A stretch of 64,000 bases of DNA from Ignavibacteriales bacterium (GTDB taxonomy: Bacteria > Bacteroidota > Ignavibacteria > UBA10030 > UBA8401), in the NCBI GenBank assembly GCA_037443785.1, contig JBBINR010000007.1, forward strand, positions 2,709-66,708, read 5' to 3'. The number at the start of each line of letters is the position of its first letter. The first letter of the stretch is position 1. The notes below the pieces were generated by a model. That model saw only the letters and a program-made list of their open reading frames with translations, had not been told where the DNA came from and did no database searches. This document shows positions 8,318 through 51,220 of this stretch, piece after piece. The translations under genes were made by a program, and so were the position numbers.

Positions 8318-8749
8318 TTAATCACGACGAGTAAAGCCGGACGGAGTTTCCCGCACCGCATTGATTGTTTGACGATATTGAGACGCCATGCTTTTTTCCT
8401 GATAGCTTCCAACGGAATACATAAATAATGTTATTACGACAAGAGCACAAAGTGAATAGATTGCTGATGGCACAGAAACTGTCAATTTTCGGTTCATCAA
8501 AGGTTCATTTTTCTTAACCAGTCCAAGGACAGAAAATTTTTGGTCGAGACTTTCCGGGACAGGAAGGTAACTCAGTTTCTTAACGCTATCATGTATCGAT
8601 TTTACCTGAACAAAAAAATTTCTGCACTCATCACATTCCCCCAAATGCAAAAAAAGCGGTTGAAGGAAATTTTGCGAAAGCTCATTGTCTAAAAACTGAC
8701 TGATATATTCTTTACTTGTTTGGCAGTTCATAATAATTTCTCCTTTCAA
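8318..8749 (-). CDS. Zinc-finger (ZAS-like) anti-sigma factor with a single transmembrane segment.
   Basis: HLGECDECRNFF HxxxCxxC motif, a TM helix (IYSLCALVVITLFMYSV), and a position directly downstream of the ECF sigma gene. Confidence 0.7.
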   Translation of the reverse strand: MKGEIIMNCQTSKEYISQFLDNELSQNFLQPLFLHLGECDECRNFFVQVKSIHDSVKKLSYLPVPESLDQKFSVLGLVKKNEPLMNRKLTVSVPSAIYSLCALVVITLFMYSVGSYQEKSMASQYRQTINAVRETPSGFTRRD

Positions 8750-8794
8750 AGCTTTTCTTTATGGATTCCCGATAGAAACATTCGGAAATAACAA

Positions 8795-9346
8795 CTACAT
8801 AAACGGTGCAAGCATTTCATTCAATGCCGCACGCGATTTAAATAATTTCGATTTTACTGCACTCACGGTCGACTCAGTTGCTTGAGCGATTTCTTCGTAC
8901 GATAATCCTTCGATTTCGCGGAGCATATATGCTTCACGGTATGCCGGTTTTAACCGCAGAATTGACTGCTGAATTTTTTCTTTCATCTCGGAATGGATTG
9001 CCGTGTGAAGCGGTGAATCACTGTCAAAAGCAGATTCATCTTCATCAAATCTTTCCATTGGAATAATTTTCTTTCTCCTCACGATCATCAACACTTCGTT
9101 TCGCGCCACCGAAAACAGCCATGATTTAAATACCATTCCATTGTGCAGCATTTGGATCTTTGTCATCATTTTCAAAAATGTTTCCTGAGTTGCGTCTTTC
9201 GACAATTCCGTATCTTCAAGCATTCTCAAACAAAAGGAAAAGATTGCATTTTTATAACGGGAATACAGTGCAGATCCCGCTTTGAGATTGCCATTCCGAA
9301 ATTGCGCAACTAATTCATCGTCTGAAAGCGGGATTGTATTCATCAT
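8795..9346 (-). CDS. RNA polymerase ECF-type sigma-70 factor.
   Basis: 183 aa. It has the region-2 pattern (FSFCLRMLEDTELSKDATQETFLKMM) and region 4 (YREAYMLREIEGLSYEEIAQATESTVSAVKSKLFKSR). Confidence 0.85.
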   Translation of the reverse strand: MMNTIPLSDDELVAQFRNGNLKAGSALYSRYKNAIFSFCLRMLEDTELSKDATQETFLKMMTKIQMLHNGMVFKSWLFSVARNEVLMIVRRKKIIPMERFDEDESAFDSDSPLHTAIHSEMKEKIQQSILRLKPAYREAYMLREIEGLSYEEIAQATESTVSAVKSKLFKSRAALNEMLAPFM

Positions 9347-17283: not shown

Positions 17284-17464
17284 TCGTCATTGCGAGAAGC
17301 GAAGCGGCAAAATAATTCCCTAAAGATTTTACCGTCCCGATACGTTCGGAACCCGCAATAACGCGATGATAAAAAAAATCTTCGCTGAATTAAAAATACG
17401 AAATTTTTTCCATTTGAAGAAATACTTCTTGACTAATTTCACGCAAATGTGTTTATTTAAGTAG

Positions 17465-17680
17465 TCTTAGAGGAGCGGTACACACAAGTACGCACATCGA
17501 AAGTGAACAACTTGATGACATGTGCAGAAAAGGTTCGCAATAAGTACCGCCGAAAGTTCATAGGGAGTTTCCTCTGTTAACTTGGGATGCAAGTAAAGAG
17601 CTTGCATACTGTTGTTTCGACATAACGAAACAAAGCGCTAACGACCATCTGCACATAGTTGTTTTGTACCGCTCGTAATG
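17465..17680 (+). ncRNA. Candidate lysine riboswitch (L-box) aptamer in the dapB leader.
   Basis: AGAGGAGCGGUAC at the 5' end pairs with GUACCGCUC at 17666..17674 (P1). Internal CCGCCGAAAG and CUGUUAAC match the L-box CGCCGAAG and CUGUCA cores. There are several internal perfect hairpins (atgcaag/cttgcat, ttgtttcg/cgaaacaa). Lysine-biosynthesis genes lie directly downstream. Confidence 0.5.
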
Positions 17681-17748: not shown

Positions 17749-18495
17749 ATGAACATTGCACTTATCGGTTACGGAAAAATGGGCAAAGAAATCGAACAAA
17801 TTGCCGTCGAACGAGGACATTTGATCGTTGCCAAATTTGACATCGATTCTCCCTTGCCATCGCCAAATTCACCATTATACGGTTCAACCCCCATTGATTG
17901 CTGTATCGATTTTAGTACGGCATCCGCAGTCGCGGTTAATGTAACAACTCTCGTACAAAGCGGAATTCCATTGGTCATTGGAACCACAGGATGGTCCGCA
18001 GAGATGGAAAACATTCGGAATATTGTAAAAACCAATAATGGTTCGGTTGTCTATTCATCCAATTTTTCCCTTGGCGCAAATATCATGTTCCGGCTTGTAG
18101 AAGCCGCTTCGGTAATTTTCAATCATTACGATCAGTATGATATTTCTGTTCACGAAACGCATCATATGATGAAGAAGGATGCGCCAAGCGGAACCGCATT
18201 GACGATTGCGAATAAAGTATTGACGCACATAGATCGAAAGAAAAAAATTACATCTACTACTCCTTCTAAAGAAGAATTATTTGTTTCAAGTTCTCGCGTT
18301 GGCACAGTGGTTGGCGAACATGCAGTACGATTCAATTCTCTCGCAGACGACATTGTTATTTCACACACAGCGCACAATCGAAGCGGATTTGCATTAGGCG
18401 CTGTTCTCGCTGCCGAATGGATTGTCGACAAAAAAGGATTGTATTCGTTCGAGGAGTTATTGTGGGACCAATACAATACAGAAATTAAAAAATAA
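17749..18495 (+). CDS. dapB: 4-hydroxy-tetrahydrodipicolinate reductase.
   Basis: N-terminal NAD(P)-binding IGYGKMGK and the DapB signature HETHHMMKKDAPSGTAL. 248 aa. Confidence 0.92.
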   Translation: MNIALIGYGKMGKEIEQIAVERGHLIVAKFDIDSPLPSPNSPLYGSTPIDCCIDFSTASAVAVNVTTLVQSGIPLVIGTTGWSAEMENIRNIVKTNNGSVVYSSNFSLGANIMFRLVEAASVIFNHYDQYDISVHETHHMMKKDAPSGTALTIANKVLTHIDRKKKITSTTPSKEELFVSSSRVGTVVGEHAVRFNSLADDIVISHTAHNRSGFALGAVLAAEWIVDKKGLYSFEELLWDQYNTEIKK

Positions 18496-35612: not shown

Positions 35613-35775
35613 ATATGAGAAATATAGAAAGAAGTTGCTGATTATCCAAGATTAGAGAAAACGGGATCGTGCATTTTTACATTGAATCGTCCCTTGCTTC
35701 CTTTTTTTTATTCGCCTACTTTTACTACGGAAGGCTGCACCATTCTGAATGTAATCTGCAAACTTCAAAAACTAT

Positions 35776-36480: not shown

Positions 36481-38013
36481 ATGAAATTTTTACGAACCAT
36501 ACGTGTAAAACTAACATTATATTACACGCTCATCGTTGGAGCGACGTTGATCGGATTCGCCGTTGCATCATATTATTTTACGGAGCAAAGCCTCCTTTCA
36601 AATTTAGATCGATCCCTCTACAACGAAGTCGTTTGGCTCAAAAATTTCGTCGAACCGGAAGCTCGTAAGGTAAAGCTGAAAAAACAACGGATAAAACCAA
36701 AACGCCAGGCTGCCAATGAAAAAAAATCATCGACCCAGTCGATTAGGAAGAGCGATGAAATTGAAATGGTGCAAAACGATTCTGTCGATGTAGAATTTGA
36801 CGCGATCTGGAATCAAATTTATGAGCACACACTGCTGACACCGAAAAAACAAATTATTCAAATCCGTGACCGTAACAACGACATTCTTTATAAATCCGGC
36901 CTTGGCAAAGAAGTGATCGAGTACGATGATATTCCGTTCAACAGCACACGTTTGGTGACAATTTGGAATTCCTCTTCGCAACAGATCAGACTTGCCGTCA
37001 GCCAGGATCAATACATGAAAGTGTACGTTGCCTACCCGATCTCAGAAGTCAGTGATGTGCTCAGCAATCTTTTTTCTATCTTTATTTATTTTATTCCAGT
37101 CGCATTGATTGTTTCTGTTTTTGGCGGATATTTTCTCGCGCTTCGTTCATTCAAACCGGTCGATGACATTCGCCGTACTGCTTTGGCAATTACTGCTCAA
37201 AATCTTGATAAACGAATACAATATACCGGCGTTGACGATGAACTGGGAAAACTTGTGGCAACATTTAATGAAATGATCGGCCGATTACAAAACTCCTTCA
37301 GTCAAATACAGCAGTTTTCCATTGATGCGTCGCATGAACTTCGCACCCCGTTGACCATTATGCGCGGTGAATTAGAACTTGCACTCCATGCCAAAAAATA
37401 TTCGACAAAAGAATATCACGATGTGCTTTCCAGCTTATTTGAAGAAACTATTCGAATGACAAGCATTATCGAAAATCTTCTTTCGCTGACAAAAGCGGAT
37501 ATTGGACGTGGTCACACGGAATTTCATGACGTATGGCTCCGTGAAATTGTCGAGGAATTAAGTGAAGACAGCGAAATGCTTGCGGAGAATAAGCACATCA
37601 AAGTAAAAGTAGCTGCCCTTGATGATGCGTTGATTTCGGGTGATCATGTTCGTCTCCGTCAATTGTTGTTGAACCTAATCGATAATGCAATCAAATACAC
37701 AGCCGAAAAAGGAACGGTCACCCTGGCGTTGACACGTACTGACGGCGCTGCGAAAATTTCTGTTTCCGATACCGGCATCGGCATTCCTAAAGAAGAGCAA
37801 TTAAAAATCTTCGACCGATTTTACCGCGTTGATAAGGCACGATCACGCGAAATGGGCGGCAGCGGACTTGGCCTTTCTATTTCAAAATGGATCGCCGAAC
37901 TTCATGGAGGCACACTTTCCGTTGAAAGCGAACCAAACGTTGGTTCAACATTCACCGTCACACTTCCTTTAAAACATTCCAAGCCTGACCAATTGGAAAT
38001 TTTCAAATCGTAA
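36481..38013 (+). CDS. Sensor histidine kinase (two TM segments, HAMP, HisKA, HATPase_c).
   Basis: H-box SHELRTPLT, N-box LLLNLIDNAIKYT, G-boxes DTGIGIP and GGSGLGLSI. 510 aa. Confidence 0.9.
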   Translation: MKFLRTIRVKLTLYYTLIVGATLIGFAVASYYFTEQSLLSNLDRSLYNEVVWLKNFVEPEARKVKLKKQRIKPKRQAANEKKSSTQSIRKSDEIEMVQNDSVDVEFDAIWNQIYEHTLLTPKKQIIQIRDRNNDILYKSGLGKEVIEYDDIPFNSTRLVTIWNSSSQQIRLAVSQDQYMKVYVAYPISEVSDVLSNLFSIFIYFIPVALIVSVFGGYFLALRSFKPVDDIRRTALAITAQNLDKRIQYTGVDDELGKLVATFNEMIGRLQNSFSQIQQFSIDASHELRTPLTIMRGELELALHAKKYSTKEYHDVLSSLFEETIRMTSIIENLLSLTKADIGRGHTEFHDVWLREIVEELSEDSEMLAENKHIKVKVAALDDALISGDHVRLRQLLLNLIDNAIKYTAEKGTVTLALTRTDGAAKISVSDTGIGIPKEEQLKIFDRFYRVDKARSREMGGSGLGLSISKWIAELHGGTLSVESEPNVGSTFTVTLPLKHSKPDQLEIFKS

Positions 38014-38049
38014 ATTTGTGTTGTTTAAATTTCAACTTTATTCAAACCA

Positions 38050-38300
38050 CAATTGTCATTCCCGCGGTTTTTGGCGGGTCCGAAGGACTCCTTTGGAGAA
38101 TCCACCAATGAATGCCCGATAGAAACATTCGGGCATGACTGACACAGTGAAACTAAAACACTGCCTGGCACTTCAATTTATTGCATCTCGCCCGTCGAAT
38201 TAGTATTATTTTCCATTTGTTATCTCAAAATCAAAATTAGTCATTGCGAGACGTTTTCTCGCCGGAGTCCCGCTGTACGGGACTCCGTACAGCGGAGCAA
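38050..38300. repeat. Leader rich in hairpins and short dispersed repeats (gtcattcccgcgg / gtcattgcgag units, cccgatagaaacattcgg hairpin, mutually exclusive GC hairpins) upstream of the APC permease.
   Basis: gtcatt unit at 38055 and gtcattgcgag at 38240..38250 (also at 17286..17296). gcccgatagaaacattcgggc hairpin at 38114..38134 (18-nt core also at 8768..8785). Hairpin ggagtccc/gggactcc (38264..38286) overlaps ccgctgtacgg/ccgtacagcgg (38270..38295). Confidence 0.55.
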
Positions 38301-38323
38301 TCTTATTAAACGAGGAACAATGA

Positions 38324-39727
38324 ATGTCTTCTTCCCAAACAAGCAATGAAACAACTCTGGCGCGCCGATTAACGTTGACCAACGCTATCATGGTCGTCAT
38401 TGGATCGGTTATTGGTTCCGGAATTTTTTTAACACCGCAAAATGTTGCTGCGACGGTTCAAATTCCCGGCATCATGATTTTTGTATGGATCCTAACGGGA
38501 CTTTTAACGCTGGCCGGCGCGCTGACGAATGCCGAAGTGGCAAGTTTAATTCCTGAAGCAGGCGGACAGTACGTTTTCTTTCGTGTCACATTCAAACAAC
38601 TCACGGCGTTTCTGTACGGATGGACAACATTTATTGTGTATCAAACAGGATCAATTGCCGCCATCGCCGTTGCGTTCGCAAAATATTTCGGATACTTTGT
38701 TGTCCTGCCGCATTTCGGCCCTGAGTTAGAGGCATGGAAACTCCCGTTGATCGGAAACATTTATCCGCTAAAAGATTTCGGCGTTACGATGCTCGCAATT
38801 CTTGCAATTGTTACCGTAACAACGATTAATTATTTCGGAGTCCAATTCGGCGGATTAATACAAAATGTTTTTACGTTCTTAAAAGTACTCGCGATCGGAA
38901 GCATTATCGTTCTTGCATTTACTGTCGGAAAAGGAAGTGTTGAACATTTCTTTCCGCTCTGGGGCGCTCCATCATCAAACGGATTGCTCGCCGCCATTGG
39001 TGTTGCAATGATTGCAACGCTCTGGTCGTATGATGGATGGAACAGCCTTACCTTTCTTGCCGGTGAAGTGATCGAGCCGCAAAAAAATATTCCCCGTGCA
39101 TTAATTATTGGGACAGTTGCCATCATCATCATTTACGTCCTCACCAACATGGCGTATTTGTATATCCTTCCCATCGGTCAGATTGCTCAATCAAAACTTG
39201 TTGCCGCGGATGTGATGGACACGATCTTCCCTTCGCTCGGCGGAGCAATTATTTCTGCGATGGTGATGATCTCGACATTCGGAACGGTAAATGCATCATC
39301 GATGACAACCGCACGAGTGTTTTATGCGATGGCAAAAGATAAAATGTTTTTCAAAAGCATGGGGAAAGTCCATCCGAAATTCAGGACACCGGGAAAATCG
39401 CTCATCATTCAAGGAACATGGGCAAGCATCTTGTGCCTTACAGGCACATACGACCAGATTTTTACGTACGTAATTTTCGCCGGTTGGATTTTTTATGCAC
39501 TTGGCGCTGTTGCAGTTTTTATTCTTCGCCGCCAGCAACCGGATAGTCATCGCGCGTACAAAGTTCCACTCTATCCGTTCGTTCCAATTCTCTTCATCAT
39601 TGTTGCAACATGGTTCGTGTTCAATACCATTGTGCAGCAAACGGCTGATTCGATGGTGGGATTGCTTCTTGTTGCGGCGGGGATTCCGTTCTATTTGTAT
39701 TGGCAAAAGCAGATGACGAAGGAGTAA
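38324..39727 (+). CDS. APC-superfamily amino-acid permease.
   Basis: 467 aa with 12 TM helices. N-terminal LTLTNAIMVVIGSVIGSGIF is the consensus APC signature. Confidence 0.85.
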   Translation: MSSSQTSNETTLARRLTLTNAIMVVIGSVIGSGIFLTPQNVAATVQIPGIMIFVWILTGLLTLAGALTNAEVASLIPEAGGQYVFFRVTFKQLTAFLYGWTTFIVYQTGSIAAIAVAFAKYFGYFVVLPHFGPELEAWKLPLIGNIYPLKDFGVTMLAILAIVTVTTINYFGVQFGGLIQNVFTFLKVLAIGSIIVLAFTVGKGSVEHFFPLWGAPSSNGLLAAIGVAMIATLWSYDGWNSLTFLAGEVIEPQKNIPRALIIGTVAIIIIYVLTNMAYLYILPIGQIAQSKLVAADVMDTIFPSLGGAIISAMVMISTFGTVNASSMTTARVFYAMAKDKMFFKSMGKVHPKFRTPGKSLIIQGTWASILCLTGTYDQIFTYVIFAGWIFYALGAVAVFILRRQQPDSHRAYKVPLYPFVPILFIIVATWFVFNTIVQQTADSMVGLLLVAAGIPFYLYWQKQMTKE

Positions 39728-51097: not shown

Positions 51098-51171
51098 TGA
51101 GTAATTCTATTTTGTTCGATAATTACTATGAATATACCCATTCTCCAAACCAGTATCAACGAGCAGGAAAT

Positions 51172-51200
51172 AAAAAACCCCGCTATTCGCGGGGTTTTTT
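51172..51200. terminator. Terminator hairpin between the hldA start region and the end of the T9SS cluster (symmetrical).
   Basis: aaaaaaccccgctattcgcggggtttttt. Confidence 0.65.
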
Positions 51201-51220
51201 ATGACAAAAAATGAAATGCC

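Follow-up and report, generated by a model that had tools for sequence, protein, structure and literature searches.

Whether the hairpins crowded upstream of an amino-acid permease gene form a regulator of that gene or have some other origin is the question raised by a 310-nt gap in the genome of an Ignavibacteriales bacterium. The gap separates a histidine kinase gene (36481-38013, + strand) from the gene of an APC-family permease (38324-39727, +) and lies in a 64,000-nt stretch of contig JBBINR010000007.1 (positions 2,709 to 66,708). This whole stretch was analyzed and is called the window here; coordinates refer to it unless another locus is named. A first-pass annotation had described a perfect hairpin, two overlapping stems and two recurrences of such sequences elsewhere in the window, all of which could be located exactly as described, and had proposed either a family of dispersed REP-like palindromes or an attenuator or riboregulator of the permease. 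The results presented here make it probable that the gap has taken up small DNA hairpins belonging to the dispersed NTS/SRM repeats and does not house a dedicated regulator of the permease.

The NTS repeat of Neisseria, CGTCATTCCCGCGMAVGCGGGAATCYRG, and the broader Ssn-related motifs (SRM) were defined by Chenal et al. (Nat Commun 2025, PMC11893778); the Neisseria dRS3 repeat ATTCCC-N8-GGGAAT belongs to this kind. According to that work, the hairpins are recognised by small GIY-YIG proteins of a single domain, called Ssn (cd10448; the N. meningitidis protein has 94 aa), which bind them in single-stranded DNA only and cleave a few bases upstream, and the repeats are typically found on the flanks of ssn genes. 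In Neisseria, the C right after the palindrome is the most important base for binding, while extensions of the hairpin loop are tolerated in vitro.

Two inserted repeat units were found in the gap, a doublet at 38055-38139 that starts 41 nt past the stop codon of the kinase gene, and a unit of another type, called type C here, at 38240-38302. Both carry additional nested hairpins. Profile searches brought the total for the window to five repeat units at three intergenic gaps. When each is read on its proper strand, the units have a common design in which a GTCAT start is followed by a palindrome: GTCATTCCCGC ggtttttg GCGGG ... from 38055 (+; type A), GTCATGCCCGA atgtttcta TCGGGCAT from 38139 (-; type B), GTCATTGCGAG ... 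GCAATC from 38240 (+; type C), GTCATTGCGAG AAGCGAAGCG GCAA from 17286 (+; type C head) and GTTATTTCCGA atgtttcta TCGGGAATCC from 8793 (-; a solo type B copy). The heads TGTCAT at 38054-59 (+), AGTCAT at 38140-35 (-), AGTCAT at 38239-44 (+) and CGTCAT at 17285-90 (+) follow the form H-GTC-W-Y directly 5' of the palindrome; the solo copy has TGTTAT at 8793 (-). This shared head, the composite nature of 38055-38139 and the minus-strand orientation of the perfect hairpin had been missed in the first-pass annotation.

The type B arm of the doublet (38109-38139, -) reads GTCATGCCCGAATGTTTCTATCGGGCATTCA, with the stem ATGCCCGA/TCGGGCAT and the loop ATGTTTCTA, and the perfect hairpin gcccgatagaaacattcgggc at 38114-38134 reads on the same minus strand. 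Its 18-nt core, CCCGATAGAAACATTCGG, recurs exactly at 8768-8785, where the first-pass annotation had placed it, with 0.09 matches expected by chance; the similarity around this recurrence stretches to 32 nt (family D9). In a scan for exact matches, with one genome per species, the 18-mer was present in at least 119 genome stretches from Elusimicrobia, Ignavibacteria, Desulfobacterota, Nitrospirota, Planctomycetes, Gemmatimonadota, Chlorobi, Cyanobacteria, Firmicutes and others. GTCAT stands at the head and ATCCAG at the tail of nearly all the copies listed, and the aligned copies take the form yGTCATnC-CCGAATGTTTCTATCGGG-nATCCAg, with the consensus yGTCATnCCCGAATGTTTCTATCGGGnATCCAg. This consensus matches the published NTS, with which it has head and tail in common. 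Outside the fixed 18-mer the stem covaries, pair 8-28 being UA 36, CG 33 or GC 13 times and pair 7-29 UA 71 or CG 16 times. The 8-bp stem, with 95% of cells paired, contains 68 double-change cells, a number that shuffles (19 +/- 7) reached in 0/500 cases, and the pairing is lost once the partner columns are shifted; this agrees with the palindrome of 20-50 nt, kept by compensatory changes, that is expected of NTS/SRM. In the window, a nhmmer profile of 94 type B copies from other genomes matches two sites and no others, 38139-38108 (E = 2.6e-10) and 8793-8761 (E = 1.2e-9). The second is the solo copy (8761-8793, -; TGTTATTTCCGAATGTTTCTATCGGGAATCCAT), which has GTT for GTC in its head and one stem mismatch and is partly decayed.

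The other arm of the doublet is of type A (38055-38103, +) and consists of the head GTCATTCCCGC (38055-38065), the loop GGTTTTTG, GCGGG (38074-38078), a nested hairpin TCCGAAGGACTCCTTTGGAG (38079-38098) and the tail AATCC (38099-38103), so that the doublet as a whole is a forward GTCATTCCCGC...GCGGG...AATCC hairpin facing an inverted GTCATGCCCGAATGTTTCTATCGGGCAT hairpin. The canonical type A form, GTCATTCCCGC-N-GCGGGAATCC, occurs 51 times among the fetched 18-mer loci and also flanks Ssn-like genes. In the 18-mer loci, GTCATTCCCGC is usually trailed 5-40 nt on by an inverted type B unit, and 26 distinct doublets of A-forward and B-inverted arms, 65-94 nt in length, were counted in other genomes among the matches listed. 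Against the type A profile, the 5' half of the window arm gives E = 0.026. What distinguishes the window doublet is the 20-nt hairpin wedged between GCGGG and the canonical AATCC tail. This module, TCCGAAGGACTCCTT(C/T)GGAG, recurs with one mismatch in an unrelated metagenome contig (L260:1818-1870), where it sits within a GTCAT hairpin adjoining an Ssn-like gene, which suggests that such modules recur as 'cargo' hairpins in repeats of this kind. The repeat loops often contain nested hairpins, as in Endomicrobium copies with a B core in an A frame; the loop extensions tolerated in vitro by the Neisseria system thus have counterparts in natural copies. Another recurrent nested module, CCCCGC-ttcg-GCGGGG followed by TAAACT, was seen in the loops of Ssn-flanking hairpins from various metagenomes (L272:1313-1357, L294:1443-1487, L306:1411-1465, L315:626-656 and L323:1250-1295).

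Taken together, sequence, structure and covariation place the A and B arms in the NTS/SRM family. Types A and B have the oriented (C/T)GTCAT head, the ATTCCCG.../...CGGGAAT palindrome and, apart from the base change in the window's B arm described below, the C-containing tail (ATCCAG) of that family, and like its known members they are intergenic, multi-copy and often arranged in inverted pairs. The REP-like dispersed family proposed at first is thereby supported and can be refined to GTCAT-headed repeats of the NTS/SRM kind, which occur in many phyla and elsewhere flank small GIY-YIG genes.

This last point was pursued in other genomes, where hairpins of the same design were found to flank small single-domain GIY-YIG genes. 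Among the 119 listed 18-mer loci, small GIY-YIG open reading frames with Pfam PF01541 as their only domain are directly adjacent to the 18-mer in L021 and L026; in L083 the neighbour is a fragment of such a frame. The reading frames of L021 and L026 have a Y/Y/E spacing equal to that of the catalytic residues Y6/Y17/E64 of N. meningitidis SsnA, and homologues of these proteins are very numerous; a comparison of the Ssn-like protein with solved structures and NCBIfam gave no specific match. In two metagenome-assembled genomes of Bacteroidota (L250 and L251), an Ssn-like gene is embedded in A and B units, with TGTCATTCCCGCGAAGGCGGGAATCCAG upstream and its inverse downstream of the gene in L251. 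A metagenome scan with an alignment of Ssn-like proteins yielded 80 loci. A GTCAT-headed perfect hairpin was present at most 400 nt from the Ssn-like gene in 76 of them, and in 60 there were hairpins on both sides, forward upstream and inverted downstream. The 208 flanking hairpins comprise 83 of type A, 13 that are B-like and 112 other stem variants. The hairpin-flanked arrangement was also seen for all eight Ssn-like homologues in IMG/VR. The published association between repeats and ssn genes is thus independently reproduced, and types A and B are placed within it.

These data also bear on another alternative, namely that the hairpins are chance structures or that the doublet is the terminator of the upstream two-component operon. 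The short distance between the kinase stop codon and the doublet would agree with a terminator, and the two occurrences of GTCATTGCGAG in 64 kb are not significant by themselves, since 45/100 shuffles give at least two hits at no more than one mismatch. But the fold z-scores lie between -3.4 and -5.9, with 0/200 shuffles folding as well, the profile E-values of the B copies lie at 1e-9 to 1e-10, no T-tract follows the doublet hairpins, and the orthologous gaps described below manage without the hairpins. As this explanation is moreover contradicted by the cross-genome family evidence, it can practically be set aside.

If the gap has been colonised by repeats, the question arises what it looks like in related genomes. 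Relatives with permeases of 82-91% identity keep the gene order response regulator, kinase, permease and peptidase. In five of them the kinase-permease gap measures 92, 87, 88, 164 and 90 nt, compared to 310 nt here, and all five gaps lack every one of the hairpin units (L002, L004, L245, L246 and L247; alignment A3). The only element shared by the six orthologous gaps is a promoter-like block consisting of TTGCATCT, a spacer and TAT(T)nTTTT, with TTGCATCT and TAT.TTT as the invariant columns; in the window it reads TTGCATCT...TATTATTTT and spans 38181-38212 (+). The block resembles the Bacteroidetes-type promoter, -33 TTG / -7 TAnnTTTG, and is likely to be the promoter of the permease gene in Ignavibacteriales-like genomes. 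Relative to the orthologues, the window has about 160 nt added upstream of the block and about 60 nt, the type C unit, downstream of it. The type C unit at the permease is strain- or species-specific. An identical kinase-permease gap is found in a Logan contig of the same strain (L001). In one relative a different addition of 75 nt lies upstream of the same block (L246:9837-9945), with the hairpin GGGACGAAGC-aac-GCTTCGTCC.

Given the position of the block upstream of 38240-38302, the type C unit is probably transcribed and part of the 5' untranslated region of the permease mRNA, where an RNA switch could reside. The overlapping stems reported earlier belong to this unit: stem 1 (8 bp) pairs ggagtccc (38264-38271) with gggactcc (38279-38286), stem 2 (11 bp) pairs ccgctgtacgg (38270-38280) with ccgtacagcgg (38285-38295), and as their arms overlap within 38264-38295 (+) the two cannot coexist. 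That they are mutually exclusive, as the first-pass annotation had it, is therefore correct, and so approximately is the distance of about 40 nt to the ribosome-binding site GAGGA (38312-38316), which lies 17 nt past stem 2 and about 48 nt past the first base of stem 1. A pseudoknot of X-Y-X'-Y' order was rejected, since the stems share bases and no linkers are left. The folding that had been suggested as a check confirmed that 38236-38310 is strongly structured as RNA (z = -4.76 versus shuffles, 0/200 as good). In a switch, the 8-bp stem would form first during transcription and would then be replaced by the 11-bp stem, thereby controlling termination or access to the ribosome-binding site. 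Mutually exclusive stems, a region that folds much better than shuffles, its probable transcription and a weak terminator-like site, CTCCGTACAGCGGAG + CAATCTTATT, that was flagged in the sequence all speak for such a device, as do the likenesses to known attenuators and riboswitches, i.e. a structured 5' leader with alternative pairings and a transporter gene downstream.

Several observations nevertheless make an RNA switch very unlikely. The stems do not form a balanced pair of alternatives because they differ by about 6 kcal/mol (-16.0 kcal/mol for stem 1 and -22.1 kcal/mol for stem 2 as RNA), and the minimum-energy fold contains stem 2 together with a separate GCGAGA/TCTCGC hairpin. The tail AGCAAUCUUAUUAAA is poor in U and matches the terminator consensus weakly, and the ribosome-binding site is not sequestered, the stems ending 17 nt before it. 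The opposite DNA strand folds equally well, with z = -5.8 and -5.9 for the two strands of 38236-38310 as DNA. The unit is absent from the five orthologous leaders despite the similarity of the permeases. An Rfam scan of the whole window at the gathering threshold, another check proposed at the outset, returned only a lysine riboswitch elsewhere (17460-17648), which scores 78 bits, whereas a scan of 37950-38400 at E <= 10 gave only a 14.8-bit HTH-XRE match on the opposite strand that we regard as noise. Finally, head and tail of the unit match a dispersed repeat of many genomes and phage contigs. The attenuator or riboregulator of the original proposal thus finds no support.

The same comparison with dispersed repeats bears on the architecture of the 38240-38302 unit. 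Its head, GTC + ATTGC + GAG (38240-38250), and its tail, GCAAT + C (38297-38302), are those of type C, whose family form is GTCATTGCGAG-variable-CGAAGCAATC and was found in Ignavibacteriales and other loci; the type C profile matches the head with E = 0.18 and the tail with E = 5. In between lies a 46-nt inner part with the GCGAGA/TCTCGC hairpin (38246-38262) and the two overlapping stems, which places the 'mutually exclusive stems' in the nested interior of a type C unit. This inner sequence had no second occurrence among the other loci compared. The second type C site of the window is a degenerate inverted pair (17286-17362, both strands), in which the type C head GTCATTGCGAGAAGCGAAGCGGCAA runs forward from 17286 and GTTATTGCGGG on the minus strand from 17362. 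The pair encloses the B-like hairpin CCCGATACGTTCGG (17336-17349), the related hairpin pointed out in the first-pass annotation; its two heads pair with each other on the minus strand (z = -2.35), and the type C profile matches 17284-17305 with E = 0.001. The repeat of GTCATTGCGAG at 17286, on which the original proposal had relied, is present, but in view of the shuffle counts given above it becomes meaningful only because of the external family evidence.

Type C proved to be very widespread. In the Ignavibacteriales metagenome-assembled genome L029, types A, B and C occur together in neighbouring gaps, and the close relative L246 has type C at a locus other than the permease gap; there, an inverted type C pair (L246:2102-2234) lies between a radA-like gene with RadA/Sms-type Pfam domains and dctM. 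In IMG/VR, type C is present in at least 120 phage-like contigs (L125-L244), with up to six copies per contig. Such copies (e.g. L139, L160 and L170:2695-2818) lie between structural and terminase-like genes, in inverted pairs roughly 10-25 nt apart and in one case as a tandem array of four copies with 33-nt spacing. The most frequent insert is CGAAG among the IMG/VR matches listed. Type C folds in two tiers, GTC being followed by the outer stem ATTGC/GCAAT, a purine-rich internal loop, a variable inner hairpin and C, and it thereby retains both features important for N. meningitidis SsnA, GTC 5' of the palindrome and C just 3' of it. Some Ssn-flanking hairpins (L298 and L331) have ATTGCCC...GGGCAATCC stems. 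From these features we infer that type C is a relative within the same superfamily as types A and B.

A number of findings weigh against assigning the window repeats to the NTS/SRM kind. The published SRM pattern HGTCWYN(0-2)YYVSBRHN(0-5)WNVSBRGN(0-2)RNCYNB has no match on either strand of the window (shuffle mean 0.09); it permits a loop of only 0-5 bases and demands G/C where type B has A-T, whereas the B arm has a conserved 9-nt loop and an A-T pair at that place. All window copies deviate from the family consensus, and key positions are mutated in two of them: the palindrome of the A arm is broken by the 20-nt insert, the solo copy has lost the C of its GTC head, and the B arm has T in place of the family C right after the palindrome (CATTCA versus CATCCA). 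A C directly 3' of the palindrome, in a tail of the ATCC(A/T)G kind, is present in the A arm (AATCC), the type C unit (GCAAT-C) and the solo copy (GGGAATCCAT). Repeat density is low, with five units in 64 kb, and neither an Ssn-like nor a GIY-YIG gene was detected in the window or in the 295 kb of window plus relatives by phmmer, jackhmmer or an HMM of alignment A1. The GIY-YIG proteins of other genomes would be cd10448 members judging from their length of 94-108 aa, GIY-YIG as the only Pfam domain, the Y/Y/E spacing and the flanking repeats. Type C, which also differs from NTS/SRM by its purine-rich internal loop, was found beside an Ssn-like gene in none of the 208 flanking hairpins and none of the eight IMG/VR Ssn-like loci, and the 120 type C loci among the matches listed contain a single fragment of a GIY-YIG reading frame, 2.3 kb away.

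Part of this evidence would suit REP/BIME- or MITE-type repeats that are moved by a transposase, e.g. of the RAYT or IS200/IS605 kind, and are unrelated to Ssn, their GTCAT likeness being convergent. The units are short, palindromic and intergenic and occur in inverted doublets like REPINs, the REP/RAYT system likewise is proposed to use an enzyme that recognises single-strand hairpins and whose gene is flanked by repeats, no Ssn-like gene was found in the 295 kb of this lineage, and type C has no detected protein partner. The likeness of the NTS-ssnA-NTS arrangement to insertion sequences has been noted before (PMC11893778). We consider this explanation unlikely, however. In head and stem, and in the tail apart from the base change in the B arm, the A and B arms are identical to the repeats that flank Ssn-like genes at 76 of 80 metagenome loci, GIY-YIG genes lie directly at the 18-mer itself, and the associated gene in relatives encodes a GIY-YIG nuclease and not an IS200/IS605-like TnpA. 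No recurrent transposase-like reading frame was seen beside the type C copies, although a search aimed at RAYT was not made, neither there nor genome-wide. REPs, furthermore, carry a conserved GTAG-type head, and the units here begin with GTC-AT.

Clustering of the open reading frames located at most 150 nt from type C copies yielded only phage structural or terminase-like proteins and spurious peptides encoded by the repeats themselves, no nuclease was found among the reading frames between inverted type C heads, and a literature search for the type C sequence retrieved no relevant paper. Type C (GTC-ATTGC-GAG / variable inner hairpin / CGAA-GCAAT-C), which escapes the published SRM pattern, might be a distinct, undescribed and very widespread family with its own partner enzyme or a function on single-stranded DNA or RNA, a tentative idea that we hold to be possible though not the favoured one. 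In that case the stems in the permease 5' untranslated region would exemplify how such units acquire cargo hairpins and carry them into transcripts.

If the repeats are of the NTS/SRM kind, a mechanism can be proposed in which the repeat unit is made up of the oriented head (GTC), the palindrome and the C-containing tail. By analogy with Neisseria, small single-domain GIY-YIG nucleases (Ssn) would bind the hairpin in single-stranded DNA and cleave a few bases upstream. In the permease gap, the doublet lies upstream of the promoter-like block and the type C unit inside the probable 5' untranslated region. The units would act at the DNA level and would not constitute an RNA switch. If the permease is affected at all, for instance through a stable hairpin in the 5' untranslated region that might alter mRNA stability or translation, this would probably be an incidental by-product.

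The surroundings of the individual units may be added here. The permease, the downstream neighbour of the gap units, is a 467-aa protein (Pfam AA_permease_2, E = 1.4e-56) with orthologues in other genomes; its 467-aa form has no exact database record, a 445-aa call from the same strain being on record. The solo type B copy sits between the gene of an ECF sigma factor (8795-9346, -) and that of its zf-HC2, anti-sigma-like partner (8318-8749, -), in a gap of roughly 45-60 nt, and would consequently be co-transcribed in that operon. The degenerate pair 17286-17362 lies between the start of carA and the lysine riboswitch just downstream of it (Rfam RF00168, full-length, 17460-17648, +), which precedes the dapB gene (17749-18495; DapB_N/DapB_C). 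Upstream of the two-component system, a PhoD-family gene is found between a TAtT gene and the response regulator gene in L245 (6381-7667), L246 (6231-7595) and L247 (6315-7679). It is missing in the window (at about 35613-35775), L002 and L004; its presence in the more distant relatives implies that the two-component system may originally have been phosphate-related. A further hairpin of the window, GTC + ATAAAAAACCCC gcgaatagc GGGGTTTTTTAT at 51170-51205, has a perfect 12-bp stem with A/T runs on both sides and resembles a bidirectional intrinsic terminator more than it does the repeats.

Overall, the analysis removes a false lead, in that the leader is very probably not a new riboregulator of an amino-acid transporter. 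For annotation, units of this kind explain many spurious small open reading frames and 'structured leaders'. The GTCATTGCGAG...GCAATC repeat is flagged here as a common element without a known partner. Repeats of the Ssn type, whose 2025 description drew mainly on Neisseria and other Proteobacteria, extend to Ignavibacteriales-like genomes. As the published search pattern misses the forms found here, i.e. long-loop type B, A/B doublets and units with nested hairpins, censuses of SRM that are based on it undercount the family.

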